Shown piece by piece: positions 3,958 to 54,453 of a stretch of DNA of 64,000 nucleotides. The DNA is from an uncultured delta proteobacterium (GTDB taxonomy: Bacteria > Desulfobacterota > Desulfuromonadia > Desulfuromonadales > JACZKF01): assembly GCA_963848425.1 (NCBI GenBank), contig CAWKDO010000011.1, positions 355 to 64,354 on the forward strand, written 5' to 3'. The notes beneath the pieces were generated by a model. The model had not been told where the DNA came from. It worked only from the letters and a program-made list of their open reading frames with translations, and made no database searches. How positions within the stretch are numbered: position 1 is the first letter of the stretch; each line of letters begins with the position of its first letter. Position numbers and translations under genes: made by a program.

Positions 3958-3993
3958 TAAAAAAAGGACATCCCCACCCATGCCCTGCCGCTC

Positions 3994-4377
3994 ATGAAAC
4001 CTGCCTCCCTGAAGGTCTGGGCCAAACAGCTCAAGCAGCACACGCTAATCGTCTATTTCGCCGCCCGCGATCCCCGCACCCCTGTTCTCGTTCGCGCCTT
4101 GGCGATTCTCGTCGCCGCCTACGCGCTCAGCCCCATCGATCTCATTCCCGACTTCATCCCGCTCATCGGCCATCTCGACGACCTTCTGCTGGTCCCGCTC
4201 GGCCTGGCGCTCATCGTGCGGCTGACGCCGCCGGAGGTTCTGGAATCCGCCCGGCGGCACGCGCAACAAGCGGCCGACAGGCCGGTCAGTCGTTCGGCGG
4301 CGGCGTTCATCGTCATCTTCTGGCTGCTTGCTCTGGCCGTCTTGGCGAAATGGGCGTACCATATCGGGTGCCCTTGA
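3994..4377 (+). CDS. DUF1232/YkvA-family membrane protein
   Basis: 127 aa with the hallmark YALSPIDLIPDFIPLIGHLDDLLLVPLG motif and flanking TM helices. Confidence 0.75.
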   Translation: MKPASLKVWAKQLKQHTLIVYFAARDPRTPVLVRALAILVAAYALSPIDLIPDFIPLIGHLDDLLLVPLGLALIVRLTPPEVLESARRHAQQAADRPVSRSAAAFIVIFWLLALAVLAKWAYHIGCP

Positions 4378-4454
4378 CCAAACCGACGCAACCGCGGGAA
4401 ATGCCATGAATAGAGACAAGAAATCAGGGAGCCGTTTTTCAGCCCAAGGGGGGC

Positions 4455-10807: not shown

Positions 10808-12418
10808 ATGGCAAAGAACATCGTGCTGTGCTCTGACGGGACTGGGAACCAGGATATCAAAAACCGCGGTACCAATGTTTTTAAGCTTTACGAAGCCGTA
10901 GATATTCAGGGGTATAAAAAGAATCCGAAATTGACGAAACAGGTAGCGTTCTACGACGACGGGGTGGGGACGGCAAACGCCTTCGCCAGGGTGGTCGGTG
11001 GGGCTTTCGGGTGGGGGTTCTCCCGCAATGTCAAAAAATTGTATCGGGAGTTGGTAAACGTCTACGAGCCGGGCGACAAGGTGTTCCTTTTCGGGTTTAG
11101 CCGCGGGGCGTACACGGTGAGGGCTCTTGCCGGGTTCATTCAGTACTGCGGGATTCTGGATACGGAATATTACAGCACTCAGCCACATCAGGATCTTAGA
11201 GGTATCGTCGAAAAGAACTGGAAGGATTTCAGTGAGAACGCTTTCAAGCACGCCAATGCCAAAGAGCGCAGGGGGAAGATCCCTTCCGAAGCGGAAATCG
11301 CCGAGGGATGGGAAGCCACGAAGGCATGCCGCAGGGAGAACCATGCGGCCAACCCCGAAGAGAAGATTGACATAGCTTTCATCGGCGTCTGGGATACGGT
11401 GGGCGCCATCGCGACTCCTTTCGATGGTTTGCGGGAATTGATAAGCCGTTTCATCAAGCCGATATGGTTTGCTGACAATACCCTTGGCCCCGAGGTCACC
11501 CGCGCCTGTCATGCACTGGCCCTCGATGAAGAACGGCGTACTTTCCACCCCGAATTGTGGAACGAAAAGAACGGCAAGGATACCCGCATCAAGCAGGTCT
11601 GGTTCGCCGGCGTGCACTCGAACGTGGGAGGAGGGTATCCGAAACAGGGAATGTCGCTGGTGACACTGGACTGGATGATGAATGAGGCGAGCCAGGCAGG
11701 GCTACGCTTCAATCAGATGGATCGGGTTTTTGTACAGAAGCACCAGGACGTGCATGACAAAATGTATGATTCCCGATCGGGTGTCGCCGTGTATTACCGG
11801 TGGTCTCCGCGCGAATTAAACCAGCTGTGCGAGGAGCATAAGATACCGGCACCCAAAATCCATGTAAGCGTCTTCGAAAGAATCGCAAACGGAACCAACG
11901 GAACCAGAGGTGACGGGGGAATGGACTCCTATTCTCCCGGAAACATCCCATTCAATCTAGAGATCGACACCTCTGGGAGTATCAGATCCTGGCCGGCCCC
12001 CGCGGTTACCGCTAGCATTCCTACACTTATGAGCCCCCCCGGCAATACCACCTCAGAAAAGTCTCTCCTGAGCGGGATGAGCAACGTGGTTCTGTCGGGG
12101 AAGGGGTCGCATACTACGTTCCTCGTCGTGACGCTGATAACACTCGCGATGCTCGTCTGGGTCCACATCAGCCGATGGTGGGGATGCTGGCCCTATGGCA
12201 ATCCGCTATTGGTGCTGGGGGCGATCGCCTTTTTTACCGCCGGTAGTATTATCGTGTACCTGTGGGCTGACAAGGTCGATACCACCCTCGGCAAGAGGTA
12301 TATGGAATTTTGGCACCAACGCCATAGGGCTCTGCGTCCAATGCTGAATGAGGATCCGGTGAATATGCAATCACTTCACCCAGTGCGGAAGAAACAGAAA
12401 GCTATTCCCCTTATTTAA
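10808..12418 (+). CDS. DUF2235 (Tle1-like) alpha/beta-hydrolase with C-terminal transmembrane helices
   Basis: N-terminus NIVLCSDGTGNQ, then YDDGVGT and the GFSRGAY nucleophile elbow, typical of the DUF2235 / T6SS-phospholipase Tle1-like catalytic domain. Two hydrophobic helices near the C-terminus (TTFLVVTLITLAMLVWV, LLVLGAIAFFTAGSIIVYLW). Confidence 0.75.
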   Translation: MAKNIVLCSDGTGNQDIKNRGTNVFKLYEAVDIQGYKKNPKLTKQVAFYDDGVGTANAFARVVGGAFGWGFSRNVKKLYRELVNVYEPGDKVFLFGFSRGAYTVRALAGFIQYCGILDTEYYSTQPHQDLRGIVEKNWKDFSENAFKHANAKERRGKIPSEAEIAEGWEATKACRRENHAANPEEKIDIAFIGVWDTVGAIATPFDGLRELISRFIKPIWFADNTLGPEVTRACHALALDEERRTFHPELWNEKNGKDTRIKQVWFAGVHSNVGGGYPKQGMSLVTLDWMMNEASQAGLRFNQMDRVFVQKHQDVHDKMYDSRSGVAVYYRWSPRELNQLCEEHKIPAPKIHVSVFERIANGTNGTRGDGGMDSYSPGNIPFNLEIDTSGSIRSWPAPAVTASIPTLMSPPGNTTSEKSLLSGMSNVVLSGKGSHTTFLVVTLITLAMLVWVHISRWWGCWPYGNPLLVLGAIAFFTAGSIIVYLWADKVDTTLGKRYMEFWHQRHRALRPMLNEDPVNMQSLHPVRKKQKAIPLI

Positions 12419-13492: not shown

Positions 13493-14539
13493 ATGGAACG
13501 CTTCATCATTGATGAAAGTGGTTACACAGGTTTCGATCTGCTAAACAAAGACCAGCGATTCCAAGGCGCTTCAGCCACATCAATAACCGATGAAGTAGCG
13601 GCGGAACTCATCAGGGAACATTTTCCAAGGCTCAAAGCGCCCGAACTTAAGTATCAGAGTCTAGCGCGTTGACCAGGAAATCGTGAGCACCTGCTTAACC
13701 TACAGCGAGATGTACTGTCGCAATGGAAGTGCGTTACATACGTTTGCGATAAAAGATTCTTGCTGAGCCTGATGTTTATGGATTATGCGGTGGAGCCGTT
13801 TTACTACGAGAGGGGCTTCGACTTTTACGAAGACGGGCAAAATTATTCATTGGCTTCCCTTTTTTACCGTGCAGGACCATCTCTTTTCGGTAAGGCGCAG
13901 TTTGATGCCCTGATGGCAGCTTTTCAAAGAGCAATCAACAAAAAATCTCTGGAAGCCCTCAACGATCTTGTGTCAACTGTTCGCCAAATGAAATGGCAGG
14001 AACTACCTGAAGCGCTCGGACCTCTTGCATATGCATCGCCAGAGTGCTTGGAGGCTATCTCTACACCCGAATTAACAACTGATGCAGCATGTGTGGTTCT
14101 TCTATCGTTGATCAGTAGGATGGAAGCTATGGCTGACGGAGCATATCGTGTTGAGCACGACGAATCGAAAAATCTACTCAACTACCATCGACTTCTCAGG
14201 CAGTTTATAGAACATGACAACCAAATAGAGTTTAAGGAAACCCAAATTACGAGCTTAAAATTCCCTCTCAAGCTGTCAGAGGTGACTCAAACGGATTCTA
14301 AGTTGAGCCCCGCTGTGCAGGTTGCCGACGTATTGATAGGCGCTGCTGTTGAGGCATCGAAATCTCTTGCCGGAGGTTCTAAATCAACCGTCGAGACTGA
14401 AAGCCTAATGGACCTGTATTCCGATGACCAGATCATCCACTTATTTCCATCTCTTGATTTCAAGGAACAGAAGGAATTCCGGCGTGGCACCCAGGCCGGG
14501 GAGCTTATTGATTATTTCGCAAAGCACTTCGGTGGGTAA
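13493..14539 (+). pseudogene. DUF3800-family protein interrupted by an in-frame TGA at 13670-13672
   Basis: ATG 13493 gives MERFIIDESGYTGFDLLNKDQRF.. (DUF3800-type N-terminus with DESG). After 59 codons there is a TGA, and the same frame continues PGNREHLLNLQRDVL..CVTYVCDKRFLLSLMFMDYAVEPFYY into ORF 13760..14539. Confidence 0.7.
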
Positions 14540-15775: not shown

Positions 15776-16408
15776 ATGATGATTCCCATGCTCGAAGTTT
15801 GCCCGTCCTTTCGGGCAGACTGGGATGCTTTTGTTGATGAGTGGAAGGACGAGAAGGACGGTCTTCCGCTTTACTTGTCTTTATCTGAGCTGGCACGACA
15901 TCTTATCTCTATGTTGGAAATCGGAGAAACTGAAGCATTTCCTCAAATATTTCAGGTCATAGAAAGATGGCATACTGAAGGGGATGGATACGTCAGAGAA
16001 GCTGCTACAGTTGGGCTCCTTGAAGATTTGCAAAATACAAACCTACATGAAATAACCAACCCTGAGCAGTTCCGGTGTTATCTCGGGACAGAGTCATTGA
16101 AGTGGTGGGACAAGCTGGGGCGGTCATTGGGGTCAGACTTTGCATATTGGCATTCTTTCGAGAATTCTACTTACTCTAATTTCCCCCACCAGCCGAGCCT
16201 CATCCGGGAATTCACCCGTCTTCTTTTTCGAATACACCAGCATTCCGTCCACAACGACCTCAAACACCCCGCCGCTCGACTCGATAAGCCTGACCTCCGC
16301 AGCCATCGCCTCCTTGATCTTCGCCGCCAGACTGGCGGCACGCTCGCGATAGCCTCACTGGTTGCAGTATTCGATGGTGACCAGCATGATGATTCTCCTA
16401 CGGATTGA
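15776..16408 (+). CDS. hypothetical protein (immunity-protein-like; 3' limit unreliable)
   Basis: The first ~120 aa look like a genuine helical protein (..ARHLISMLEIGETEAFPQIFQVIERWHTEGDGYVREAATVGLLEDLQN..). From ~16133 on, the frame is open only because it runs antisense to the SelW-like gene. Confidence 0.45.
   Translation: MMIPMLEVCPSFRADWDAFVDEWKDEKDGLPLYLSLSELARHLISMLEIGETEAFPQIFQVIERWHTEGDGYVREAATVGLLEDLQNTNLHEITNPEQFRCYLGTESLKWWDKLGRSLGSDFAYWHSFENSTYSNFPHQPSLIREFTRLLFRIHQHSVHNDLKHPAARLDKPDLRSHRLLDLRRQTGGTLAIASLVAVFDGDQHDDSPTD
16133..16387 (-). CDS. SelW-like selenoprotein (in-frame TGA = Sec at 16355-16357), copy 1
   Basis: GGAGA-N6-ATG start. Translation MLVTIEYCNQ-U-GYRERAASLAAKIKEAMAAEVRLIESSGGVFEVVVDGMLVYSKKKTGEFPDE.. 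parallels SelW (VVYCGAUGYK...FEV.V.G.L.HSKK). CxxU redox motif. Hairpin GCCGCC-AGUCU-GGCGGC lies 15 nt after the UGA (16323-16339). Confidence 0.75.
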
Positions 16409-40239: not shown

Positions 40240-40438
40240 TTGCGCAGAAAAATGGCTGACCGAGGAGTGCGCGAGGGATATCTGACGAAGGCCAGGCATT
40301 TAGAGGCAGAAAGGAGGCCGCTCTTCATAATTATCGCAAATGAGGAGGGGATGTGGTAAAGGTGAAACGGATAGCCACAACCCTGTGATCTGTGGGGGCC
40401 GCGCCGAAAGGCCACGGAGGTATGCCGGAGGTGATGAC

Positions 40439-40732
40439 ATGATCGGTAGAGATCAGGCATTAGAAGTGTTGCGCAGTCTTAAAAGTGAGTTTTCAGATCG
40501 CTACGGCATCACCGCTCTTGGAATTTTCGGCTCGGTGGCCCGCGGGGAGGCAAAAATGACGAGTGACTTGGATGTGGTGGTTAAAATGCGGGAACCCAAC
40601 CTCTTTACTCTCGTTCATGTCAAGGAGGATCTGGAAGAAGCGCTGCATGAGCATGTGGATATCGTCCAATACCGGGAGCGGATGAACTCGTTTCTGAAAC
40701 GGCGCATCGACCAGGAAGCTGTCTATGTATGA
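40439..40732 (+). CDS. MNT-type nucleotidyltransferase antitoxin (MntA-like)
   Basis: GGAGGTGA lies upstream of the ATG. GIFGSVARGE...SDLDVVV is the minimal nucleotidyltransferase G-S..D.D motif. 8-nt overlap with the HepT gene. Confidence 0.8.
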   Translation: MIGRDQALEVLRSLKSEFSDRYGITALGIFGSVARGEAKMTSDLDVVVKMREPNLFTLVHVKEDLEEALHEHVDIVQYRERMNSFLKRRIDQEAVYV

Positions 40733-41111
40733 CTCCGAATTGGTCATTGAAATCCTGCGGCAAATCCAGGAGGCGGGAAAAAGGATCGAGCGACGCTTTT
40801 CCCCCGTACGATTTCCTGATGATTTTCTGATTACGGACGAGGGACTTGACCGCCTGGATGCAATCTGCATGATGCTGATCGCCATCGGTGAAAGCCTCAA
40901 GAACCTTGACAAGCTGACCAACGGTGAGCTGCTGGCGAGATACCCCGGTGTCGATTGGAAAGGTGCCAAAGGGGCGCGTGACATCATTTCCCATCACTAT
41001 TTCGATTTGAATGCCGAGGCGGTGTTCGGCATCTGTCAAAGCGACATCCCAAACCTCGCCGTGACCATTGAGAAGATGATTGAGGATCTGAGCCATGGCG
41101 CAGCGTCGTAG
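40725..41111 (+). CDS. HepT-like (DUF86/HEPN) toxin
   Basis: 128 aa. The RDIISHHY segment is the HEPN Rx4H motif. Paired with the MNT gene. Confidence 0.8.
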   Translation: MYDSELVIEILRQIQEAGKRIERRFSPVRFPDDFLITDEGLDRLDAICMMLIAIGESLKNLDKLTNGELLARYPGVDWKGAKGARDIISHHYFDLNAEAVFGICQSDIPNLAVTIEKMIEDLSHGAAS

Positions 41112-41119
41112 GAGGTCTA

Positions 41120-41455
41120 ATGCCCCCGAAAGGATTTTCTTGTAAGCAGTGCGGCAATTGCTGTCTTAATCTCGGCGCATATCAAACGTGTGCAACGGAT
41201 GAGGATGTCGCCTCATGGGAGAAAAACGGACGAGACGATATCCTGGAATGGGTAGATGAGATGGTGCCCGGAATTTATGACATCTGGATCAGCCCGCGGA
41301 CCGGTGACGATGTCAGCCGATGCCCATGGCTCCGCAAGCTGCCGCGGCAGGAAAAGTACATTTGCCGGATTCAAGATATGAAGCCGAGGATATGCAGAAA
41401 TTATCCGCTATCGAAAGATCAGGCGGAAAAAACCGGATGCATGGGGTTTGGGTAG
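41120..41455 (+). CDS. YkgJ-family cysteine-cluster protein
   Basis: 111 aa. CKQCGNCC N-terminal cluster, plus C..C near the C-terminus (CPWL, CRIQDMKPRICRNYP). Confidence 0.7.
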   Translation: MPPKGFSCKQCGNCCLNLGAYQTCATDEDVASWEKNGRDDILEWVDEMVPGIYDIWISPRTGDDVSRCPWLRKLPRQEKYICRIQDMKPRICRNYPLSKDQAEKTGCMGFG

Positions 41456-41697: not shown

Positions 41698-41735
41698 CCG
41701 CCGGTACAGCACTCGCTGACCGGCGGGTTTTTTTT
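41698..41735 (+). terminator. strong rho-independent terminator without an obvious upstream gene
   Basis: CCGCCGGT-N13-ACCGGCGG followed by eight T. The nearest upstream CDS ends 240 nt earlier. Confidence 0.7.
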
Positions 41736-41781: not shown

Positions 41782-41830
41782 TTGACTCGTAAATACCAAT
41801 TGGTATACATATCTTAAACACCAATTGGTG
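41782..41830 (+). promoter_or_regulatory. sigma70-like promoter with two ACCAATTGGT operator palindromes
   Basis: TTGACT (41782-41787), a 16-17 nt spacer, then TATACA/ATACAT (41804-41810). TACCAATTGGTA (41794-41805) overlaps the spacer and -10. CACCAATTGGTG (41819-41830) lies just downstream. RBS GAGGGTGA and ATG at 41853. Confidence 0.6.
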
Positions 41831-41852: not shown

Positions 41853-42191
41853 ATGCCTCCGATTGGGACGAATTTAGATGGATATGTACTGAATATGATA
41901 CGGGATGCGTACATAGCCGGGGAGATCCGCAAGACGAAGGACTGCATGGCAGACATGGCTCGTGACAGGCTGTACGAAGCCGATGTGGAGAAGGTTATCA
42001 CTGAAGCGGATTCCATAGAGAAAGCCATGCCGGCCACGAGTGAACGAGCAAGCAGTCCCAAAAACACCCACTACGTTTTACGCGGGGCCAGCACCAGAGG
42101 TACTGAGGTCTATTGCAAGGTCTGCAGCAATTACCATCCGAGGACGGACGAATTCCTCGGCTGGAAACTGACCTCTTTCGAGAACAAGTGA
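41853..42191 (+). CDS. MqsR-like type II toxin
   Basis: 112 aa. The C-terminal pattern ..SIEKAMPATSE..YVLRGASTRGTEVYCKV....WKLTSFENK parallels MqsR (..FYKSMTT..DVY....VYLKI....IVSFKEK). Followed 8 nt later by an MqsA-type gene. Confidence 0.55.
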   Translation: MPPIGTNLDGYVLNMIRDAYIAGEIRKTKDCMADMARDRLYEADVEKVITEADSIEKAMPATSERASSPKNTHYVLRGASTRGTEVYCKVCSNYHPRTDEFLGWKLTSFENK

Positions 42192-42199
42192 GACTGACC

Positions 42200-43605: not shown

Positions 43606-43749
43606 GTGGATTTGCATCCAAGGCGAACAGCTCAAACGTCGAAAGGAGAGCCAAGATGGCAAAACCGAAAGTGACAGGGGCAAAGGCTGCCCCCAGTGCA
43701 TCAAAGACGTTGACAAGTTTTAGTTATTGAAACTGCAAGGAGGTTCGCA

Positions 43750-44568
43750 GTGCATATCTACACGTTGAATGTTGGGCAGGGTCAATTCGTTGTCGTTACT
43801 GGTGATACGCAAGCGGTAATTGTGGATACTTATGTGCCGCTCAATCCTACTAACGACATCATTAACGTTAAAGCGGCGCTAGCGACAATTCTTCCGGGCA
43901 AGGAACTTGTAGGGCTTATTGTTACCGGATTTGACTCTGATCATTTTAATGAAGTGGGGATGAAAATAGTCCTGAACAAGTACAGGCCAAATTGGATAAT
44001 GTACCCAAAATACTTCAAGGATACCAAGGTGGCAGACGCATGCTTTGACGTAATAAAGGGCTTTGAGTCACAAAAAGCCTTTAATCGTCACTCGGTATCG
44101 CTGTCCCAGAATGACACCAGATTCTACAAGAAGCTATCAACAGATTTCCAATTTGAAATCTTTTCGCCACATTCTGCTGACATGAATTCATCCAATAATT
44201 GTTCATTGGTTTGTCGAATAAAAGAACGATCTACAGGCTGCACATACCTCGTTACAGGGGACACAGAGAATGATCGGTGGAAGTCAATTGTGCAATATTT
44301 CGGTAAAGCACTTGCCTCCGATGTTCTCGCTGCCCCACATCATGGGTCAAAGAACGGTATCTCTGCAGAGGCATTGGCTTTGATTAAACCAAAATCTGTT
44401 CTAATCAGTGCCGGAGTGGACAACCAATATGGGCATCCTAACCGGGAAGCAACCCGATTTTTTGCAGCTCACACTGAAAAATACTATTCGACCAATTATG
44501 GTGGTGGTCAGTCCATAAAGACAGTGGTTTCGGGGCAAGATGTGAATACCTACAAATTCGTGCCATAG
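43750..44568 (+). CDS. MBL-fold protein 1 (ComEC C-terminal-domain type)
   Basis: AAGGAGG lies upstream of a GTG start. IYTLNVGQGQFVVV, LIVTGFDSDHF (degenerate HxHxDH), YLVTGDTE, LAAPHHGSKNG and QYGHPN follow the ComEC/Rec2-type metallo-beta-lactamase pattern. Confidence 0.75.
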   Translation: MHIYTLNVGQGQFVVVTGDTQAVIVDTYVPLNPTNDIINVKAALATILPGKELVGLIVTGFDSDHFNEVGMKIVLNKYRPNWIMYPKYFKDTKVADACFDVIKGFESQKAFNRHSVSLSQNDTRFYKKLSTDFQFEIFSPHSADMNSSNNCSLVCRIKERSTGCTYLVTGDTENDRWKSIVQYFGKALASDVLAAPHHGSKNGISAEALALIKPKSVLISAGVDNQYGHPNREATRFFAAHTEKYYSTNYGGGQSIKTVVSGQDVNTYKFVP

Positions 44569-44584
44569 AGGAAGGAACCAACTC

Positions 44585-45727
44585 ATGCACCAGATTATCT
44601 TTTACCCAGTAGGCAACGGTGACAGTAGTCAGATTATCCTCGAAAACGGTAAGCGGATATTATTCGATTACCGGCATTTGAAGAAAGGGGAAGGTGAGGA
44701 GAGCCCAGAAATCGACTTGAAGGGACGCCTGAAAAAAGAGCTTGATGACGCAAAGAGGGACTACTTCGATGTTGTCGGTTTTACCCATTGCGATAGCGAT
44801 CACATTGAAAATAGCACCGAGTTTTTTGAGCTGCGCTATGCCCAGAAATACCAAGGCAACGACGGCAGGATAAAGATCAACGAATTGTGGGCCCCGGCTG
44901 CCATGATCCTGGAAACAACAACGAACGGCCAGCAAAGCAGCGAGTTCGTCATCTGGCGGCAGGAAGCCCGATATCGCTTGAAGAAAGGCGAAGGCATCCG
45001 CGTTTTTTCGAAGCCTGACAAATTGAAAGACTGGCTTGAAGGCGAAGGCTTGTCGGTAGAATCACGGAAACATCTTATCACGGACGCGGGGTCGTTAGTG
45101 CCTGGGTTTGACCTCCAGAAAGACGGCATCGAGTTCTTCTGCCATAGCCCGTTCATCCGGCATGCCGACGACGGTGACGACCTCCGAAACCCGTGTTCAC
45201 TCATCTTCAATGTCCGGTTGAAAGCCGGAACCAATACATACGACTACCTGGCCGTCGGGGATACGGAATGGGAAATTTTGGAGGAGATCGTCAGCACCAC
45301 ACGGTATCACAAGAACGATGATCGGTTAAATTGGGACATCTTCAACATTCCTCACCACTGCAGCTACCTGGCTCTCAGTGACGAAAAAGGAGAAAAGGAG
45401 ACGGAGCCGAAGCCCCTTGTCAAAGACCTGCTGCTCCAGGGGACGACTGATGCATACATTGTCAGCTCAAGCAACCCGATAAAGGATTCGAAGGAAGCAC
45501 GGGAACAAACGCAGCCCCCTCATATTCAGGCTAAGAAATGCTATGAGCGGTACTTAAAGGAGGTTAACGGCGCAAAATTCCTTGTGACGATGGAAGAGCC
45601 GAACGAGAAAACTCCCGAGCCTCTTGTATTCAACATCGAAAGCAACGGGATCAAGCGCGGTGCGAAGAAACCAGTTGCGGCTCCATCTGTGATCATTACG
45701 TCTGCTCCGGCTCCGAGGGCAGGTTAA
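44585..45727 (+). CDS. MBL-fold protein 2 (divergent paralog) with Pro/Ala-rich C-terminal tail ending in Gly
   Basis: IIFYPVGNGDSSQIIL, VVGFTHCDSDHI, YLAVGDTE and NIPHHCSY parallel protein 1. Extra insertions. Tail ..GAKKPVAAPSVIITSAPAPRAG-stop. The TAA is immediately followed by the ATG of the next gene. Confidence 0.7.
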   Translation: MHQIIFYPVGNGDSSQIILENGKRILFDYRHLKKGEGEESPEIDLKGRLKKELDDAKRDYFDVVGFTHCDSDHIENSTEFFELRYAQKYQGNDGRIKINELWAPAAMILETTTNGQQSSEFVIWRQEARYRLKKGEGIRVFSKPDKLKDWLEGEGLSVESRKHLITDAGSLVPGFDLQKDGIEFFCHSPFIRHADDGDDLRNPCSLIFNVRLKAGTNTYDYLAVGDTEWEILEEIVSTTRYHKNDDRLNWDIFNIPHHCSYLALSDEKGEKETEPKPLVKDLLLQGTTDAYIVSSSNPIKDSKEAREQTQPPHIQAKKCYERYLKEVNGAKFLVTMEEPNEKTPEPLVFNIESNGIKRGAKKPVAAPSVIITSAPAPRAG

Positions 45728-47974
45728 ATGTCTTCGTTCATCTCCTTGGGCGAAGCCTTGCCTGCTGTTGCAGGTGACCTTTTGGAGCAGCCGTATGCAA
45801 GAGAGACTCTTGATGTAGCCGCACGGGCTAAAGATGTCGAGATTGTCCAGCTTCGCCGAGCAAAGAATGCCGATGGCAGCTTTTCGGATGTCATCGTTGT
45901 CGATGTCGTCAACGATGACATCCCGACGAGGAACACCTATGGTATCAGGGTCAGAGAGCGGTTGGCCCTTGTTTTTCATGCCACCGGCCTTCCTGAAGTG
46001 CGGGCGCTACGTGCCGACTTCCCAATCGTTCTCCATACCAATCACACTCCCCCTGGCGAACCCCGCCAACTGTGCCTCTACTTTGAGCCTTGGTCTGTTG
46101 TTGAGAGGACTTGGACACCGCAGAAATTCATCAAACGAATCATGTGGTGGCTCGGCGAGAGTGCGAATGGAACTCTGCATCGGCCCGACCAACCCGTAGA
46201 ACAGCTGTATTTTACAAGCCCATTTGAGATTGTCCTACCTCCCGACTTCGACGAAAAAATACTCGATGACAACCTGGCCTTAACCTGGTCTTCCTCCCCT
46301 GACCTCAAAACATTACGGTCCTTTTTCTTGCCGAAAGGGCACCCCCAGCTCAAGACCATTTCCGGCATCACCTTTCTTTCCCTTGAACTTCCTCCCCTTA
46401 TTCATGGTCCAGTCGAATGCTACCCAAACACTTTGGGCGGTCTGCATAACCAACTTGCCGCTCGCGGGGCACCGTTTATCGATGAATTGAGGAGTAAGAT
46501 CAAAGAGAAGGTACCTCAAGAGGGGATATTAAGGTCCTCGAAAGATCGGTGCCTATTATTCCTTTTTTTGCCCGTCAAGAGAGATGCGTCCTCTTCACCG
46601 GAAAAACGTGACATTATTGCTTTTCTCATACCGTCCGATTTGTCAGTTGTCGGCGAGGCCACAGAAGATCTAGCCCATTACGATGGGAAATACTATGCAA
46701 CTTCTCTTCTCGGTGCTACGCCGCCTTCCGAAAAATGGCGCGATCTGGCCATAGCCCCAATCGAAGTGAAATACGAAATCGGGCTGCCGTTTGCTCGGTC
46801 AGCCTCTGGAATTGATGGCTCTAATGCCGATCTTGCTGGCGTCATGGCTGGAGTTGGTGCTCTAGGAAGCGCAATTTTGGAACTGTGGGTTCGTGAAGGC
46901 TGGGGGCGGTGGACGCTAATTGATCCGGATATGATAAAGGCCCACAACCTGGTCCGACACATCGCTCGTAACACCGATATCGGCAAAGCCAAAGTCGATG
47001 TTGTAAAAAACTCAATCGAAGCCATCTACCACCCAGGATACCTCGCTGTTGCCGGTATCAAGGGAAGCGCGACTGCGTGGGACAGAGTCGAAATACGCGA
47101 TGCAATTTGCACCTCTTCGATTTTTGTCAACGCGACCACAACCCTCGATGTCCCCAGGGATATGTCGCAGCGTGAACAAGCACCACGAATAGCATCCATC
47201 TTCGTAACGCCATCTGGCCGTGATTCTGTGCTCCTGATTGAATCAAGTGACAGGCAAGCACGTGTTGATTCGCTCGAAGCTCAGTATTACAGAGCCCTTT
47301 TGGAACTTCCACTGGGCATAGATCATTTAGACGGCAACGCTGGTGGATTATGGGTAGGTGCTGGCTGCAGAGACATTTCCGCAAAGATTTCCTACGAGGA
47401 TATTCAACTGCATGCTGCCATTTTGGCGAAGCAGGTTCGCACCGCATCAAGGAGAACCGAGGCCCAAGTTTGCATCTGGCGCTCGGAGCCGACAGGCGCG
47501 GTCACCACAGCAAATCTTGATGTGAAGGAGACTGTCAGAAGGGAATCGGAAGGGTGGCATGTTGTCTGGGATAAGGGGGTGGAAGAGAAAATGATTGCCA
47601 TTCGGCAAACCCACCTTCCGGAAGAAACTGGCGGTGTCCTAGTTGGCTACATCGACCAGAAACTGCGCCATATCTATGTTGTTGATGCCCTTTCGGCACC
47701 CGCTGACAGCGTTTCCGAAAGGGGGAGTTTTATCCGAGGCATCGACGGTCTCAATAAAAAGCTGGGGGAGATTGGCACACGAACAGCCAACATCGTGGGG
47801 TATCTTGGCGAATGGCATTCACACCCTCCTTTTTCGGGGCCTAGTCCGAGCCCTTGGGATAAGCTTCTCGTGAAAACATTAGCCGATGTCTTGGCAATGG
47901 ATGGTCTTCCTGCGTTGATGATGATCGTTGGAGCCGCAAGAGAAATCTCTGTATCCGTGAGGTTTGTGGCGTGA
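45728..47974 (+). CDS. E2-like / E1-like (ThiF) / JAB (JAMM) triple-fusion protein
   Basis: 748 aa. E2-like H103-T-N..C116 (VLHTNHTPPGEPRQLCLYF). E1 Rossmann loop AGVGALGS (aa 373-380), LIDPD, NLVRH. JAMM: E632/E633-TGGVLVG, H697-S-H699, S708-P-W-D711. Confidence 0.8.
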   Translation: MSSFISLGEALPAVAGDLLEQPYARETLDVAARAKDVEIVQLRRAKNADGSFSDVIVVDVVNDDIPTRNTYGIRVRERLALVFHATGLPEVRALRADFPIVLHTNHTPPGEPRQLCLYFEPWSVVERTWTPQKFIKRIMWWLGESANGTLHRPDQPVEQLYFTSPFEIVLPPDFDEKILDDNLALTWSSSPDLKTLRSFFLPKGHPQLKTISGITFLSLELPPLIHGPVECYPNTLGGLHNQLAARGAPFIDELRSKIKEKVPQEGILRSSKDRCLLFLFLPVKRDASSSPEKRDIIAFLIPSDLSVVGEATEDLAHYDGKYYATSLLGATPPSEKWRDLAIAPIEVKYEIGLPFARSASGIDGSNADLAGVMAGVGALGSAILELWVREGWGRWTLIDPDMIKAHNLVRHIARNTDIGKAKVDVVKNSIEAIYHPGYLAVAGIKGSATAWDRVEIRDAICTSSIFVNATTTLDVPRDMSQREQAPRIASIFVTPSGRDSVLLIESSDRQARVDSLEAQYYRALLELPLGIDHLDGNAGGLWVGAGCRDISAKISYEDIQLHAAILAKQVRTASRRTEAQVCIWRSEPTGAVTTANLDVKETVRRESEGWHVVWDKGVEEKMIAIRQTHLPEETGGVLVGYIDQKLRHIYVVDALSAPADSVSERGSFIRGIDGLNKKLGEIGTRTANIVGYLGEWHSHPPFSGPSPSPWDKLLVKTLADVLAMDGLPALMMIVGAAREISVSVRFVA

Positions 47975-49131
47975 CGACCGAAAGCAAACGAATAGGAATC
48001 GCCCTCTCAGGTGGCGGTGTCCGGGCTGCCGCATTCCATGCCGGGGTATTGTTATGGCTGGCTGAAAAAGGGCAGCTAGAGACAATTCGTCATATCTCAT
48101 CCGTATCCGGAGGAAGCCTCTTTGCTGGCCTCATCTTCCATATTTCCGATTATGCATGGCCTTCGTCTGAGGCATATGCCAGCAAGGTTTTCCCTGCTAT
48201 CAGGTCCGTTTTAACTTCCAATTCACTCCAGGTGAACGCTTTGCTCCGCCTTCTTCACCCATTGAATTGGCGATTTTTGCTTTCACGTGCAAACATCCTG
48301 GCCCAAAGCATCCGGCACCTTTGGGGAGTAACTGGCTCTCTTTCTGATCTTCCAGGCAATCCAGTGTGGTCAATTAATGGTACTACCGCCGAAAACGGGA
48401 GGAGGTTCCGGTTTAAAGAAAAGAAACTGGGAGACTACGAGATTGGGTATGCTGATGCGCCCAATTTCCCCTTAGCTGACGCGATGGCGATCTCTGCCGC
48501 TTTTCCTGGTGGAATCGGCCCGTTAAAGATTTTTTCCGACAGATTCGAATGGGAAAAGCGAAAGTCTTGGGATTGGTCAACTGCCCCCGAAAAAATTGAG
48601 CCGACTTTTCGGCGCATCCACATATATGACGGTGGCGTGTATGACAACCTGGGTCTGGAACCCTTCTTTGACATTGGGAAACAGGTTATAAAGACCGAAA
48701 CAGGAAGCCCACCGGTAGATTTCATAATTGTTTCAGACGCTGGAGCCGCTTTCGGCCGACAACAGATTCCGGGGCCACTACATCCAGGACGCTTAGAGCG
48801 GGTCGCAAATATTGGGTTTGGCCAGGCGAGGGCTTTGAGGGTTAGGTCCTTTGTCCACTTTCTTCAGCACAATAGTGATTCAGGAATGTATGTCCAAATC
48901 GGCTCTGACCCCGTCGCTTCGATAAAAACATATGGAGAAAAGTCTTTGCCGATGACGGATATCCAATGGCTAACCGCCGACAAAGTTGCTGAGGCGGGGA
49001 GATATCCAACTTCATTACGCAAAATGCAAGTGGATGAATTCGACCTGCTAGCTTTGCATGGTTATCAGACTGTTGCATGGAATGAATTTGTTTTCGGCAG
49101 TACCGTAGCTCTAGGGAATCTGAAAAATTGA
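47971..49131 (+). CDS. patatin-like phospholipase
   Basis: The GTG start overlaps the upstream stop (GTGA). GIALSGGGVRAAAFHAG (oxyanion GGGxR), SVSGGS (nucleophile Ser), IYDGGVYDNLG (catalytic Asp). Confidence 0.85.
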   Translation: MTTESKRIGIALSGGGVRAAAFHAGVLLWLAEKGQLETIRHISSVSGGSLFAGLIFHISDYAWPSSEAYASKVFPAIRSVLTSNSLQVNALLRLLHPLNWRFLLSRANILAQSIRHLWGVTGSLSDLPGNPVWSINGTTAENGRRFRFKEKKLGDYEIGYADAPNFPLADAMAISAAFPGGIGPLKIFSDRFEWEKRKSWDWSTAPEKIEPTFRRIHIYDGGVYDNLGLEPFFDIGKQVIKTETGSPPVDFIIVSDAGAAFGRQQIPGPLHPGRLERVANIGFGQARALRVRSFVHFLQHNSDSGMYVQIGSDPVASIKTYGEKSLPMTDIQWLTADKVAEAGRYPTSLRKMQVDEFDLLALHGYQTVAWNEFVFGSTVALGNLKN

Positions 49132-49278
49132 GCGATCCCAAGGGGGTGTTTCTGTCAAGGCAATGAAACATGACTAAAGAACACCGCTCATGAAAGCCGG
49201 ATTTTACCGTGCTAATCTAATAATCCTTGCCTGAGATCGTCCGCATTAGCGTTCTGCCTTCGCCCGCGCCCGCAATAA

Positions 49279-49316
49279 GAAGGGGCTTGCAAGCCGATCA
49301 GCCTGCAAGCCCCTTT
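49279..49316. terminator. bidirectional terminator between the patatin gene and the radical SAM gene
   Basis: GGGGCTTGCA-N12-TGCAAGCCCC (10-bp stem) flanked by AAGAA / TTTCCTTT. Confidence 0.7.
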
Positions 49317-49342
49317 CCTTTACCTCCGAACCCACCTTGGTC

Positions 49343-50673
49343 TTACGCCATGCACTGAAACAATCCGGCACTCCACAAGCAGCTGCCGCACGGCTCGGCG
49401 TTGACGTAGCAGTCCTGTTCGAAACTCTCCGCCTGCACATAGTCGCAGGGGGCGAAGTTACACCCGGGGCAGAAGGGATAATCGTAGCGCAGCACGTTCT
49501 CCCGGTAGGCACGAAACTCCCGGCTGTTCCAGATGTCCAGCAAACCTTTCTCGGCCAGGCTGCCGAAAACTTTCGGCTGCACCGGATGCAGCCAGCCGCT
49601 GGCAAAGGAACGGCAGGCGTGCCAGAGATAGTAACAGGGGTGCACCTTGCCGTCCCAGGAGACGAACGCTCCCCCTGCTCGACGAAATCGCACCGCCGCC
49701 GCTCCCGCGGCGCCGCTTCGGGGAGCCGCAGATCGAGGCCGGTTTCCCGCGCCACCTCCCGCGCCTCCTCGAAAACCTCGACCACCTCGTCGAGCCCGGA
49801 GCTGCCCGCGGCGAGGAGACGCCTGAGGTCGAGGGTGATGCCGCAGTTTTGCGCATCGGCCTTCATCGTTTCGACGAAATTGGCAATCCTTTGCTCCTCC
49901 GCCGTTTTTTGGTACTTCCAGAGAATGTCGAAATAGCGCCGGAGATCGACGCCGGCAAGCTCGGCCTTGACCTCCCAGGCATGAAAGAGGGATATGGCTT
50001 CGATGGTGCAGAGATCATAAGCCGCTTGGGTAGTATGGGCCTCGTCATAGGGGAGGACGTGGGAAGCGATGGCGAAGGTGGCCCCGCGGGCGGCAGCCCA
50101 GCGCAGCGCCGACGGCAACTCCCGCAGGTTGTCGCGCATGACGACGAATTCGACGCCGACCTGCAGGTCCGGCCGGCCGCATGCCGCCTTGGCGGTGGTA
50201 AGGGCGGCAAGAGCGCACTCGAGATCGCGCAGCTGTCCGCCCTCGCGGATCGAGCGGAAGGTCTCGGCAGAAGCGCCATCCATCGACAAGCAGATCCGGT
50301 CCACCCCCGCTTTGGCAAGGGTCACCGCACGAAGTTTGGTCAGTAGAAGCCCGTTGCTCTGAAACCCGACCCAGCTCCGGGCCGGCATCAGCTTCTTCGC
50401 CCGGCCGATGAACCGCTCCAGATGGGGATGGAGCAGCGGCTCGCCAATGCCGTTGAGGACCAGCGCCTCCAGATCCGGAAAGGCTGGCTCCAAAGCGGCG
50501 AAGGTCCCCGGCTGCAGATCCCCGTCCCCCGTTTGGCCGGAGGTTTGCTTCATGCACATGACGCAGTTCAGGTTACAGCGGCTGGTCGTTTCGACAAACA
50601 GCTTCGCCGGTTGCCGCCGCAACCCCGGCCTGCTTTCAACTTCACGGCAGGAAGGATGTGCCAGGACCGTCAT
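49343..50673 (-). pseudogene. radical SAM/SPASM-domain protein, one frameshift near 49685 as assembled
   Basis: FVETTSRCNLNCVMC (CxxxCxxC). The C-terminal SPASM-like Cys-rich part lies in ORF 49343..49693 (..VHPCYYLWHAC.., YPFCPGCNFAPCDY.., CGSCLWSAGLFQC). Confidence 0.75.
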
Positions 50674-50867: not shown

Positions 50868-51269
50868 CGCTCTTCTCCTTTCCCTCTGTAAATCGTCGTC
50901 TGCGGCTGACAGCGCCGTTCCCGGATGCCATCTCTACAAAATGGATACCAAGCCGGAAGCCGGTTCGGCGTCCGGGTGCGCCAAAACGGGCGCAGAGTCG
51001 CTCGCCAAGCGCGTCGCCGCCGGCACAGGCCAGCAAACTGGCGGCGCATCACCCCGCCACTTCTGTTCCCCTTTGGCACAGCCGTACCGTTCCGGAATAG
51101 AACAGCCACGCCAAAATGGAACACCCCCAAGCGAGCCTCCAGAAGAGCTTCCGCCGCCGCTTCCTCCACCGAATCATTGCGGAATGCCGAGCAAATTCAA
51201 AACCTTTACCGCCGGAAGGCGGCCAACCGAAAACGTGGCTGCTGCGATCTGCAGCCAGTGGACAGAGCT

Positions 51270-51284
51270 TGGTACGGTACTTGC
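51270..51284 (+). promoter_or_regulatory. sigma54 (-24/-12) promoter upstream of adh
   Basis: TGGTAC-GGTAC-TTGC matches TGGCAC-N5-TTGC in 9 of 10 conserved positions. About 110 nt upstream of the ATG at 51395. Confidence 0.6.
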
Positions 51285-51394
51285 CAAACTTTGTTTTAAT
51301 ATCTGCATGCTCCCCAGCGGCTGGAATTGCCACCGCCGGGGAGGAACTGGCCGGAAACGGCTGAACTCATTACCGGATAAAAAAGGAGAGAGCA

Positions 51395-52563
51395 ATGGCA
51401 TTAGCAGAGCAGACTTACGGATTCTACATCCCGACCGTTTCACTGATGGGTATCGGCTGCGCCAAGGAAACAGGCGCGCAGGCCAAGGCGCTCGGCGCGA
51501 CCAAGCTGCTGATCGTCACCGACGCAGGGCTCTCCAAGATGGGCGTTGCCGACAAGATCAAGGCCCAGGTGGAAGCGGCCGGCGCTCAAGGCGGTCATCT
51601 TCGACGGCGCCGAGCCGAACCCGACCGACACGAACGTCCATGCCGGCGTCAAGGTTTACCAGGACAACAAGTGCGACGGCATCATCTCCCTCGGCGGCGG
51701 CAGCTCCCATGACTGCGGCAAGGGGATCGGCATGGTCATCGGCAACGGCGGCCACATCCGCGACTACGAAGGGGTCAACAAGATCCACCAAGCCGATGCC
51801 GCCCTTCCTCGCCATCAACACCACCGCCGGCACCGCCAGCGAAATGACCCGCTTCTGCATCATCACCAACACCGACACCCACGTGAAGATGGCGATCGTC
51901 GACTGGCGCTGCACCCCGAACATCGCCATCAACGATCCGCTGCTGATGGTCGGCATGCCCCCCGCACTGACCGCCGCCACCGGCATGGACGCCCTGACCC
52001 ACGCCGTCGAGGCGTATGTCTCCATCATCGCCACCCCGATCACCGACGCCTGCGCCATCAAGGCGATCGAGCTGATCGCCGAGTACCTGCGCCCGGCCGT
52101 GGCCAACGGCGACGAACCTGGAAGCCCGCGACAAGATGGCCTATGCCGAGTACCTGGCCGGCATGGCGTTCAACAACGCCAGCCTCGGCTACGTCCACGC
52201 CATGGCTCACCAGCTGGGCGGCTTCTACAACCTGCCCCACGGCGTCTGCAACGCCATCCTGCTCCCGGCCGTCTGCGAGTTCAACCTGATCGCCAGTCCG
52301 CAGCGTTTCGCCGACATCGCCGTTGCCATGGGCGAGAACATCGCCGGCCTCTCCGACGTCGAAGCCGCCGCCAAAGGCGATCGCCGCCATCCGCAAGCTC
52401 TCCGCGGCCATCGGCATCCCGGCCGGCCTCAAGGCGCTGAACGTCAAGGAGACCGGACCTGAAGGTCATGGCGGAAAACGCCAAGAAAGACGCCTGCATG
52501 CTCACCAACCCGCGCAAGGCCACCCTTGAGCAGGTCATCGACATCTTCAAGGCGGCAATGTAA
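51395..52563 (+). pseudogene. iron-containing (group III) alcohol dehydrogenase, at least five frameshifts as assembled
   Basis: Co-linear pieces in three frames: [22 protein letters not shown].., [16 protein letters not shown] (GGGSxxD), [58 protein letters not shown], ..MLTNPRKATLEQVIDIFKAAM-stop (TAA 52561-52563). Confidence 0.85.
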
Positions 52564-52708: not shown

Positions 52709-54453
52709 ATGGATAAGATTTTACGCGTAAACATGACCGACCTCAGCGCACCAATCGAAGACGGTGCCGGCCGCATGGGCGGGGCTCGGCGGTCGCGGCG
52801 CTCACCTCGACCATCGTCGCCGCAGGAAGTCCCACCCACCTGCCACCCGCTCGGCGAGCACAACAAACTGGTCTTTGCCCCCGGCCTGCTCGCCGGCACC
52901 CCCGCAGCCAAGTCCGGGCGGCTCTCTGCCGGCGCCAAGAGCCCGCTGACCGGCACCATCAAGGAGATCAACGCCGGCGGCACCGCGGCACAGAACCTGG
53001 CCCGGCTCGGCATCAAGGCGCTGATCATCGAAGGCATGCCGGCCGAGGACACGAAGTGGTACAGCCTCCACATCAACAAGGACGGCGCCACAATCAGCGA
53101 AGAGACGGAACTGGTCGGCAAAGGGAACTACGAGGTGATCGACGCCCTCGAGGCAGCGGCTCGGCAAGAAGACCGGCGTCCTCACCATCGGCCCGGCCGG
53201 CGAAATGAGGATGACCGCAGCCAACATCTCGGTCAAGGACCCGGACAGCAAGATCCGCAGCCACGGCCGCGGCGGGCTCGGCGCCGTCATGGGCTCCAAG
53301 AAGATCAAGTACATCTCCATCGACGATGCCGGCGGCCCCGGCGTCGAACATCGCCGATCCGGAGAAATTCAAGACCGCCGCCAAGACCTTCGCCAAGGCG
53401 ATGCTCGATCACCCGGTCAGCGGCGAAGGGCTGCCCACCTACGGCACCAACGTCCTGGTCAACATCCTCAACGAGGCCGGCGGCCTGCCGACCAGGAACT
53501 TCCGTACCGGCCAGTTCGAAGGGCACGACAAGATCTGCGGCGAGACCATGCACGACACCATCGTCGCCCGCGGCGGCAAGCCGAAGCACGGCTGCCATGC
53601 CGGCTGCATCATCCAGTGTTCGCAGGTCTACAACGACAAGGAAGGCAAGTACATGACCTCCGGCTTCGAGTACGAGACCGATCTGGGGCTTCGGCGCCAA
53701 CTGCTGCATCGACGACCTGGACGACATCGCCCATGCCGACAGGATCATGGACGACATCGGCATCGACTCCATCGAGACCGCCGTCATCTTCGGCGTCGCC
53801 ATGGAAGCCGGCATCCTCCCCTTCGGCGACGGTCAAGGCATCCTGCGGCTGCTGCGAGGAAATCGGCAAGGGAACCCCGCTCGGGCCGCATCCTCGGCGG
53901 CGGCGCCGGCTTCGGTCGGCAAGGCCTATGGCCTGACCCGGGTCCCGGTGGTCAAAGAACCAGGGGATCCCCGCCTACGATCCGCGCTCCGTCAAAGGGA
54001 TCGGCATCACCTACGCCACCACCACCATGGGCGCCGACCACACCGCCGGCTACACCATCGCCACCAACATCCTCAACGTCGGCGGTTTTGTCGATCCGCT
54101 GCAAGAAGGATGGCCAGGTGGAACTCTCCCGCAACCTGCAGATCGCCACCGCCGCCGTCGACTCGACCGGCCTCTGCATCTTCGTCGCCTTCCCGGCCCT
54201 CGACATCCCCGAGATGCCTGCCGGCGATCATCGACATGATCAACGCCCGTTACGGCATCTGCCCTGACCGGCGAGGACGTGATCGACCTCGGCAAGCAGG
54301 TCCTGAAGACCGAGCGCGCGTTCAACATCGCGGCCGGCTTCACCAACAAGCACGACCGGCTGCCCGAATTCTTCGCCGAGGATACCTGTGCACCGCACAA
54401 TCGTTACCTGGACGATCAGCGACGCGGAAATCGACGAGTTCTGGAATTTTTAA
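52709..54453 (+). pseudogene. aor: aldehyde:ferredoxin oxidoreductase (tungstopterin AOR family), at least eight frameshifts as assembled
   Basis: Pieces in three frames rejoin into a full AOR: MDKILRVNMTDLS.., HPLGEHNKLVFAPGLLAGTPAAKSGRLSAGAKSPLTG, RSHGRGGLGAVMGSKKIK, LPTYGTNVLVNILNEAGGLPTRNF, KPKHGCHAGCIIQC, TTTMGADHTAGY, ..DEFWNF-stop (TAA 54451-54453). Confidence 0.85.

Follow-up and report, generated by a model that had tools for sequence, protein, structure and literature searches.

In a 64,000-nucleotide stretch of genomic DNA from an uncultured delta proteobacterium (contig CAWKDO010000011.1), referred to here in its full length as the window, four consecutive genes between positions 43750 and 49131 encode two proteins with a metallo-beta-lactamase (MBL) fold, a fused E2-E1-JAB ligase and a patatin-like phospholipase. 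The second and third of these genes form the core of an already known and named anti-phage system, 6A-MBL, of which this locus is an ordinary representative in a single genome. When the surrounding genes are taken into account, the locus is quite probably a 6A-MBL system that is extended by two accessory hydrolases, MBL1 and the patatin, and by a regulator of its own.

Assignment of the core genes to the 6A-MBL system

The four genes, with the lengths of their products in amino acids (aa), are as follows:

43750-44568, + strand: MBL1 (gene 1), 272 aa, GTG start
44585-45727, + strand: MBL2 (gene 2), 380 aa, the 6A-MBL 'enzyme'
45728-47974, + strand: E2-E1-JAB fusion, the 'cap2_3' ligase (gene 3), 748 aa
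47971-49131, + strand: patatin-like phospholipase (gene 4), 386 aa, GTG start

When these products were compared with the NCBIfam collection (June 2026), MBL2 matched model NF058524 (full length) with 416.6 bits at a cut-off of 220, and the ligase matched model NF058523 with 626.1 bits at a cut-off of 320, residues 66-733 being covered. Both are equivalog models that carry the name 'anti-phage 6A-MBL system', and they are the only two 6A-MBL models in that collection. The proteins of a Pseudomonas locus scored about alike against the same two models (405.8 and 657 bits). Together, the matches to the ligase model and to the MBL model, the adjacency of the two genes and the presence of the catalytic residues showed that MBL2 and the ligase belong fully to the 6A-MBL families.

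The designation '6a' goes back to row 6a in Table 1 of Iyer, Burroughs and Aravind (2006), which gives 'usually two genes' for this type. An initial annotation of the window had pointed to MBL-fold neighbours in surveys by these authors, and this was right. Experimental validation of the system in Pseudomonas aeruginosa is credited to Van den Berg et al. (2024) by the papers that cite them, and a later paper counts 6A-MBL among the anti-jumbo-phage systems. The Corbett laboratory has grouped 6A-MBL with Pycsar and with type II of the anti-phage signalling systems based on cyclic oligonucleotides (CBASS), termed the MBL a 'signaling enzyme' and described the conjugation targets as unknown. Lau et al. 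(2022) drew a CapP/CapH-associated 6a operon of four genes from Methylobacterium oxalidis, which means that a regulated four-gene layout was known earlier, with its accessory genes left unidentified.

The initial annotation had regarded the operon as unnamed and uncharacterised. The reading that it represents an unrecognised class of conjugation-gated defence system draws on two observations, namely that no mention of a patatin together with this chassis was found in the literature and that a sequence-level search of the Protein Data Bank (PDB) returned no entry for either core protein. For the core, however, this reading is refuted: the 6A-MBL models place both proteins in an already named system, validation has been credited, the operon type dates from 2006 and a four-gene version was drawn in 2022. 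It survives for the accessory genes only and is hardly credible for the system as a whole. The narrower statement that no patatin partner is known still stands as far as the literature searched extends. Iyer et al. (2006) list the operon without a patatin, and the literature searched, which did not cover Van den Berg et al. (2024), contained no mention of a patatin with a 6A core; nor did it contain the extension by patatin plus MBL1, the MqsA-type regulator with its operator, statistics on the PRAG terminus of MBL2 or a census of the effector slot.

The four genes are genuine. Their reading frames and coordinates, and all motif strings that the initial annotation had quoted for them (LNVGQGQ/PVGNGD, GFDSDH/THCDSDH and PHHGS/PHHCS in MBL1/MBL2; GGGVR, SVSGG and DGG in the patatin), were confirmed in the sequence and its translations. 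Read directly from the sequence, the TAG of gene 1 is followed after 16 nt by the ATG of gene 2, the TAA of gene 2 abuts the ATG of gene 3 (45725-45730), and genes 3 and 4 overlap in GTGA (47971-47974); AAGGAGG is located 7 nt 5' of the GTG at 43750. The genes are contained in a 9-kb patch with a G+C content of 0.49-0.54, compared to 0.62-0.65 in the flanks, and this patch is bordered by a sigma-54 activator gene on one side and by a radical-SAM gene on the other. The initial annotation had recognised the four-gene operon, but had missed a small upstream open reading frame (ORF), an MqsA-type helix-turn-helix (HTH) gene, a gene for an M78/CapP-like peptidase, and how common the patatin partner is. 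The unit consists of seven genes, which are a 112-aa ORF, the MqsA-type repressor gene and the M78 peptidase gene, followed by those for MBL1, MBL2, the ligase and the patatin.

The whole cassette is also present in two other assemblies (loci L001 and L168) with a protein identity of 86-89%. In L168, whose ligase is 89% identical, content and order of the seven-gene unit are unchanged; the order is also retained in L001, where MBL1 and the 3'-terminal part of the patatin gene are replaced. Eighty genomic loci, spread over many phyla, were collected by searching with aligned ligase homologs; the closest was a Geobacter metagenome-assembled genome with 86% identity. MBL2 was encoded directly 5' of the ligase in 77 of these 80 loci, the other three being clipped by the locus end, and the distance between the two genes ranged from -8 to +15 nt in 69 of the 78 loci where it was measurable. 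This adjacency of the core pair and the recurrence of the cassette in two assemblies argue against a chance cluster. A phage origin was considered and rejected, since 2.9 million viral contigs contained just seven ligase relatives, all weak or partial. No tRNA was found in the 64-kb window and no integrase in the island.

MBL2 as the putative substrate of a fused ligase

MBL2 had no match in Pfam. Its AlphaFold model (predicted local distance difference test, pLDDT, 77; predicted template modelling score, pTM, 0.82) was most similar to the MBL domain of ComEC (9ic4, E 2.6e-10), and 29 out of 29 fold matches with E < 0.001 had the MBL fold, with Pce (phosphocholine esterase) and NAPE-PLD next after ComEC. 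According to the alignment, the metal ligands of MBL2 are intact and invariant (H68-x-D70-x-D72-H73, D226 and H257-H258). ComEC is a nuclease. A lipid head-group substrate for MBL2 is nonetheless conceivable, since every common partner of the 6A core acts on or in the membrane.

The C-terminus of MBL2 reads P-R-A-G380, and the family as a whole ends in a near-invariant P-[RK]-A-G. Glycine was the last residue in 57 of 75 genomic MBL2 homologs, while the remainder continued for 1-8 residues, as in PRAG-VK, PRAG-SDD and PRAG-TAEK; a few of the homologs ending in Gly repeat the motif (for example, PRAG-RAG). The same picture emerged from 120 independent database homologs, 87 of which end in Gly (74 in PRAG) and 33 of which end 1-2 residues after [RK]AG. 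No C-terminal conservation was found in MBL1, the patatin, the ligase or MBL proteins that lack the core. In the model, residues 361-380 of MBL2 are disordered, with a pLDDT of about 30. These features have a parallel in CBASS, where Jenson et al. (2023) reported that a C-terminal Gly or Ala of cGAS is conserved solely in operons with full-length Cap2 and Cap3, that both the Cap2 thioester and conjugation depend on it, and that Cap3 cleaves at that terminus.

Gene 3, which encodes the ligase, matched the Pfam families Prok-E2_A (4.9e-27), ThiF (2.2e-12) and Prok-JAB (4.6e-09) and the PADLOC models E1-E2 (2.7e-25) and JAB (5.1e-23). The E2 cysteine is Cys116, the ThiF-type adenylation domain contains GxGxxG at residues 375-380, and the E1 cysteine is Cys547 (GCRD); the JAMM residues are E633, H697, H699, S708 and D711. 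All these residues were invariant in an alignment of 12 sequences with 44-52% identity, and the catalytic residues of the E2, E1 and JAB domains, MBL2 and the patatin are all intact. Against the NCBIfam Cap3 model, gene 3 scored merely 42 bits at a cut-off of 200. It is homologous to Cap2 and Cap3, yet belongs to a different, fused subfamily.

The P-[RK]-A-G end, the disordered tail, the parallel with cGAS and the invariant E2, E1 and JAMM residues strongly suggest that MBL2 alone is the conjugated substrate of the E1/E2 module. The possibility that both MBL proteins are conjugated was rejected, as the Gly tail is found on MBL2 only. The initial annotation had let the two MBL proteins fill the slot that the cyclase occupies in CBASS. 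For gene 2 this assignment holds, and we infer with some force that gene 2 alone fills the slot, because neither its PRAG tail nor its obligate adjacency to the ligase has a counterpart in gene 1, a rare accessory gene.

The description of the locus as a type II CBASS-like chassis without a cyclase and without a gene for a ubiquitin-like protein (Ubl) was borne out. Domain searches detected Prok-E2_A, ThiF, Prok-JAB, Patatin and ComEC-type MBL domains, but none of the island's ORFs matched a CD-NTase (cGAS/DncV-like nucleotidyltransferase)/SMODS or beta-grasp profile when compared with Pfam, PADLOC, NCBIfam and PHROGs. Of the PADLOC models, E1-E2, JAB and capP matched proteins of the locus, and the patatin was left without a match. 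No unassigned intergenic space in the locus could hold a gene of at least 70 aa, hence there is none for a separate Ubl, and the 112-aa ORF ends in ...SFENK, that is, without the C-terminal Gly of a Ubl. A CD-NTase or Ubl fold hidden within MBL2 was also rejected, given that all significant fold matches were to the MBL fold and that a beta-grasp domain would not fit in ahead of the tail; MBL1 was recognised as ComEC-like by sequence. The sole nucleotidyltransferase near the operon is the minimal nucleotidyltransferase (MNT, 130 aa) of an MNT/HepT toxin-antitoxin pair (HepT, 128 aa) at 40340-41111, on the upstream edge of the low-G+C island, and it is not a CD-NTase.

Patatin, MBL1 and an exchangeable third gene

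Gene 4 matched the Pfam family Patatin (5.7e-17). Its catalytic set, composed of a GGGxR oxyanion hole, Ser46 (xVSGG) and Asp220 (DGG), was invariant in alignments. The model of the protein (pLDDT 86.6) displayed a generic patatin fold, with PlpD, cPLA2, CapV and CapE all at a template modelling score of about 0.5, and in the fold search CapV and CapE (E about 4e-8) ranked no better than PlpD or cPLA2. The protein matched no PADLOC or NCBIfam model, and a profile search of the PDB missed CapV. An identity as CapV orthologue was thus supported neither by hidden Markov models (HMMs) nor by the PDB profile search nor by the fold comparison.

A patatin gene was present downstream of the ligase gene in 34 of the 80 loci, which stem from many phyla. 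In 34 of 41 loci its start was positioned -8 to +15 nt from the stop codon of the ligase gene; in 20 the distance was exactly -4 nt. For the 28 loci in which MBL2, ligase and patatin were all full-length, the patatin distances correlated with those of the ligase (r = 0.81, Mantel p = 0.001), as did the MBL2 distances (r = 0.90). In metagenome contigs scanned with aligned patatins, the 19 closest relatives (at least 45% identity and enough upstream sequence) included 11 located behind a 6A core, compared to none of 15 relatives with less than 34% identity. It is probable from this arrangement that the patatin is translationally coupled to the ligase and that it serves as a membrane effector.

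The third-gene architectures were counted with HMMs built from the neighbour genes. A family of ~250 aa with four hydrophobic, presumably transmembrane (TM), segments occurred in about 21 of the 80 loci and a second membrane-protein family of ~210 aa in 13, so that the two together replace the patatin in about 34 loci (for example, L004:10204-11037, L058:10136-10888, L038:10280-10966 and L039:6193-6816). Neither family had a match in Pfam or NCBIfam, and the idea that they are known CBASS or Pycsar effectors found no support there. One locus had a gene for a calcineurin-like phosphoesterase in the third position, and ten were bare two-gene cores. The architectures are interspersed on the ligase similarity tree, which points to repeated swapping. 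Furthermore, the ligase was present on 252 plasmid records, 166 of them from Klebsiella. The sole record inspected, Klebsiella pneumoniae plasmid NZ_CP138739.1 (L169), carries a bare core together with a divergent gene for a WYL-domain (CapW/BrxR-like) regulator; its core genes are annotated merely as 'hypothetical protein' and 'ThiF family adenylyltransferase'.

Conceivably, 6A-MBL could operate as a signalling cascade without a cyclase, in which MBL2, boosted by conjugation, would be the upstream signal or sensing enzyme that switches on the adjacent membrane effector through its product or through the conjugate. Such a cascade would fit the extra gene found in about 85% of the loci, which comes from a typical repertoire of swappable effectors interspersed on the ligase tree, as well as the translational coupling of patatin to ligase and the occurrence of an MBL-type partner beside a patatin even where there is no ligase. 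The mean pairwise identity of MBL2 (0.52) far exceeds that of the ligase (0.34) and the patatin (0.36), as would be expected for a fixed chemistry, and the Corbett laboratory's choice of the term 'signaling enzyme' points in the same direction. On the other hand, effector-less two-gene cores are common and are reported to defend, their composition being deduced from the two NCBIfam models; no recognisable ligand-sensor domain was detected in the patatin or the TM proteins with PADLOC, NCBIfam or Pfam; and the patatin is no closer to CapV, which is activated by cyclic GMP-AMP, than to PlpD or cPLA2. MBL-fold enzymes are hydrolases, and to our knowledge there is no precedent for them as second-messenger synthases. 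We consider a cascade of this kind unlikely.

MBL1, the remaining member of the four-gene operon, matched TIGR00361 (ComEC/Rec2) in the C-terminal MBL domain with 5.5e-27, a score below the full-length cut-off, and matched solved ComEC structures (9vc9 and others) with 5e-14. MBL1 and MBL2 are only distantly related paralogs, with 33% identity over 78 aa (E 8e-5). In the MBL1 family the first His of HxDxDH is not conserved (GFDSDH), and there is no conserved C-terminal Gly. Genes of the MBL1 type were found up- or downstream of the core in about 17 of the 80 loci, accompanied by a patatin (seven loci), the second TM family (six) or the four-TM family (two), or standing alone (two). As judged from comparative genomics, MBL1 would be a second accessory hydrolase, probably a ComEC-like nuclease, and a habitual companion of the patatin family.

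MBL1 and patatin genes also occur together in contigs that hold no E2-E1-JAB gene within their available length. At L102:2515-4438, an MBL1 gene (62% identical) is situated 23 nt 5' of a patatin gene (49% identical), with an additional MBL-fold gene just upstream of the pair, and at L097:2894-5060 and in L144 a patatin gene is followed by an MBL1-type gene. Since the three contigs are ligase-less, an MBL-fold protein plus a patatin is a recurrent pairing in its own right, and the compact MBL1-type and patatin pair may be a stand-alone two-gene module. A comparison of the window with L001 (Geobacter) is instructive in this respect. At the DNA level the core is 86% identical, while a divergent MBL1 paralog with 26% aa identity (L001:5863-6813) takes the place of 43750-44568 of the window, and the 3' end of the patatin gene (48711-49131 in the window, L001:10990-11725) is replaced to give a product of 493 aa. 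Accessory parts are thus diversifying much faster than the core.

These observations raise the alternative that MBL1 and the patatin form a self-contained system that merely brackets a standard 6A core, the two modules being nested without cross-talk. The ligase-less pairs in L102, L097 and L144 favour this idea, and so does the exchange of MBL1 and of the patatin C-terminus in L001 next to a core that is still 86% identical, which suggests separable modules; moreover, defence genes often cluster. In contrast, 27 of the 34 patatin-bearing 6A loci lack MBL1, leaving the core as the patatin's sole partner in most cases, and in most loci the ligase gene and the patatin gene overlap at stop and start. 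The core would also have had to split a flanking gene pair repeatedly, and the distances of patatin and ligase are correlated (r = 0.81). We regard nested modules as quite unlikely.

A more general proposal takes the ligase-free pairs into account. Instead of being basically a nuclease system of two genes, 6A-MBL could be a three-part cascade in which a conjugated MBL acts upstream of interchangeable membrane effectors (the patatin and the two TM families), either via a small-molecule product of the MBL or via conjugation-dependent activation of the effector, with a ligase-free 'type I' form of MBL plus patatin alongside. We put this forward tentatively, as a possibility that falls short of being likely.

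Regulatory genes, proposed mechanism and significance

Returning to the reading of the locus as a regulated and extended 6A-MBL system, the features upstream of MBL1 are the following:

41782-41829, + strand: candidate promoter with TTGACT (-35-like) and TATACA (-10-like) hexamers
41853-42191, + strand: 112-aa protein of unknown family, 64-71% aa identity to its equivalents in L001 and L168
42197-43090, + strand: MqsA-type zinc-ribbon plus HTH_3 repressor with a C-terminal extension of ~170 aa
43087-43605, + strand: M78 (IrrE/ImmA/CapP-like) zinc metallopeptidase, 172 aa, peptidase domain only
43656-43730: 24-codon ORF MAKPKVTGAKAAPSASKTLTSFSY with a sequence GAAAGGAGAG resembling a ribosome-binding site, located in the 144 nt that separate the genes of the peptidase and MBL1; this ORF may be spurious

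The repressor matched the Pfam families MqsA_antitoxin (5.8e-13; 49.5 bits at a cut-off of 30) and HTH_3 (1e-05), and scored 62.2 bits against TIGR03830 at a cut-off of 61.8. As listed, its ORF opens at a TTG at 42113; the ATG at 42197 was taken as the start because it fits the start of the domain and the 294-aa homolog in L168. The repressor and peptidase genes overlap by 4 nt. The peptidase matched Peptidase_M78 (1.5e-16), a PHROG metallo-protease (2.3e-23) and the PADLOC model capP (1.7e-26, profile positions 5-153 of 242). In the window, L001 and L168, the 112-aa gene is found directly 5' of the MqsA-type repressor gene. Its product had no significant match in Pfam, PADLOC, NCBIfam or PHROGs; it displays a pattern (AG-x-[IV]R, VY-x-K[IV] and [VT]SF-x-x-K) which may resemble that of MqsR toxins. 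Possibly, the 112-aa protein is an MqsR-like toxin, in which case the regulator would be a toxin-antitoxin pair joined to an ImmA-like protease. The cyanobacterial and some other 6A loci share, 5' of MBL2, a conserved protein of ~200 aa in which a weak winged-helix signal was detected (L005:1964-2557, L006-L009, L017 and L018), and it is possibly another type of regulator.

Two perfect 10-bp palindromes ACCAATTGGT at 41795-41804 and 41820-41829, 15 nt apart, straddle the promoter hexamers. The pair occupies the same position in L001 and L168, where the DNA around it is merely 71-73% identical, and it was absent from all 166 other loci (0/166). Just 5' of the pair, at 41711-41728, there is a terminator-like hairpin with a T-run. 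By analogy with related regulators, the ACCAATTGGT pair is the probable operator of the HTH repressor.

We propose a mechanism in which MBL2 would take the role of the CD-NTase of type II CBASS, with a flexible tail that ends in Gly380. The ThiF/E1 domain would adenylate this Gly, and the activated MBL2 would then be passed as a thioester to Cys547 of E1 and Cys116 of E2 and finally to lysines of the targets. The JAB domain would reverse these conjugates; in relatives with 1-8 residues after PRAG, it would also trim the MBL2 precursor, whereas in the present locus it would be needed for deconjugation only, since MBL2 ends exactly at Gly380. The patatin would be the membrane-damaging effector arm, in the slot filled elsewhere by either of the two TM families, and MBL1 a second accessory hydrolase or effector. 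By analogy with CapH/CapP, ImmR/ImmA and DdrO/IrrE, the MqsA-type HTH protein would repress the seven-gene unit at the paired ACCAATTGGT sites, and the M78 peptidase would cleave the repressor upon a stress signal (single-stranded DNA or DNA damage), resulting in increased expression.

Several points speak against parts of this scheme, all of which is pieced together from sequence, structural models and analogy. The operator was located via the inverted repeats and not via the scan for consensus promoters and terminators, which gave 8 promoter sites compared to 6.9 expected in shuffled sequence. The regulators are co-directional with the operon, while CapH and CapP have been described as divergent, and the coverage of capP positions 5-153 of 242 implies that the peptidase lacks the C-terminal GAF part of CapP. 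The substrate of MBL2 need not be DNA, given that Pce and NAPE-PLD, which come next in its fold search, are phosphodiesterases of phosphocholine and lipid head groups, and the activity of MBL1 is uncertain because the first His of the metal motif is absent from its family. The correlated divergence of patatin and ligase is not proof of coupling, as co-inheritance in one operon could produce the same pattern. Bare cores are frequent, which means that the patatin is dispensable for the core and that MBL2 may itself be the terminal effector; the many Klebsiella plasmid ligases, of which one record out of 166 was inspected, may add to their number. Finally, the MBL1 and patatin pairs without a ligase indicate that the patatin can act independently of conjugation.

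Compared to 6A-MBL as described, the locus shares both core proteins above the cut-offs, the gene order, the tight junction and the catalytic residues. It differs in adding a coupled patatin, a ComEC-type MBL paralog and the co-directional set of small ORF, MqsA-HTH and M78 genes. The Pseudomonas and Klebsiella loci examined (L030, L036 and L041, and one Klebsiella plasmid) have no patatin, and the Pseudomonas MBL2 proteins are about 25% identical to the MBL2 described here. With type II CBASS, which consists of a CD-NTase, Cap2, Cap3 and an effector such as CapV, it shares a homologous E2-E1 ligase and JAB peptidase, a putative substrate enzyme (here MBL2) whose flexible tail ends in a conserved Gly, a patatin among the interchangeable effectors and an optional HTH plus M78 regulator. 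Unlike type II CBASS, however, it has a ComEC-like MBL hydrolase in place of the CD-NTase, its Cap2 and Cap3 equivalents are fused, and its patatin did not match the CapV family by HMM and is no nearer to CapV than to PlpD by fold.

The Bil and Bub systems resemble the present operon in using E1, E2 and JAB-type chemistry within or close to defence loci, but there a dedicated beta-grasp Ubl is conjugated, of which none is encoded here, and E1 and E2 are separate proteins. An HTH repressor gene that overlaps an M78 gene upstream of a defence operon is likewise found in CapH/CapP, ImmR/ImmA and DdrO/IrrE. In contrast to CapH/CapP, the repressor described here is of the MqsA type (zinc ribbon plus HTH_3), the peptidase has no GAF domain, the genes are co-directional and a 112-aa gene precedes them. 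The MBL domain of ComEC/Rec2 is the best structural match of MBL2 and the best sequence match of MBL1, and it shares an HxDxDH-type motif with them. The two proteins are nevertheless soluble and stand-alone, without a channel for competence; in MBL2, about 110 residues and the PRAG tail come in addition, and MBL1 lacks the first His.

Elsewhere in the window, a 111-aa CxxCxxCC protein (putatively Zn/Fe-chelating) is encoded at 41120-41455, between the MNT/HepT pair and the defence cassette. Some flanking host genes seem frameshifted (49246-50673 on the - strand, 50941-52440 and 52709-54267). The radical-SAM ORF ends in a nonsense-looking tail, with a SPASM-like C-terminus in another frame (49343-49693); the N- and C-domains of an aldehyde:ferredoxin oxidoreductase are split over two overlapping frames; and Fe-ADH domains match just part of a 499-aa ORF. 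These genes are either pseudogenes or affected by assembly indels, while the defence operon itself is intact. A second low-G+C patch (10-16 kb) contains the gene for a Tle1-like (DUF2235) phospholipase of the type VI secretion system effector type (1.9e-77) at 10808-12418, with genes for proteins of the types DUF3800 (13760-14539) and DUF7674 (15776-16408) nearby. In a third patch (2-4 kb), a ParE toxin domain makes up the first ~97 residues only of a 261-aa ORF (3624-4409), which may reflect read-through or a mis-set stop.

6A-MBL is a validated system, and the comparative results turn its mechanism into specific, testable questions. The PRAG tail, present on the MBL protein alone, offers clean point mutants and a remnant to search for by mass spectrometry. 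The swappable, membrane-acting third gene in most loci raises the question whether the MBL does the killing itself or acts upstream as an activator, and the patatin and MBL pairs without a ligase, which parallel the relation of type I to type II CBASS, provide a simpler system in which to examine the link between MBL and patatin. If the MBL did turn out to be an upstream activator, Cap2-type conjugation would emerge as an amplifier of general use, capable of being added to sensor enzymes that are not related.

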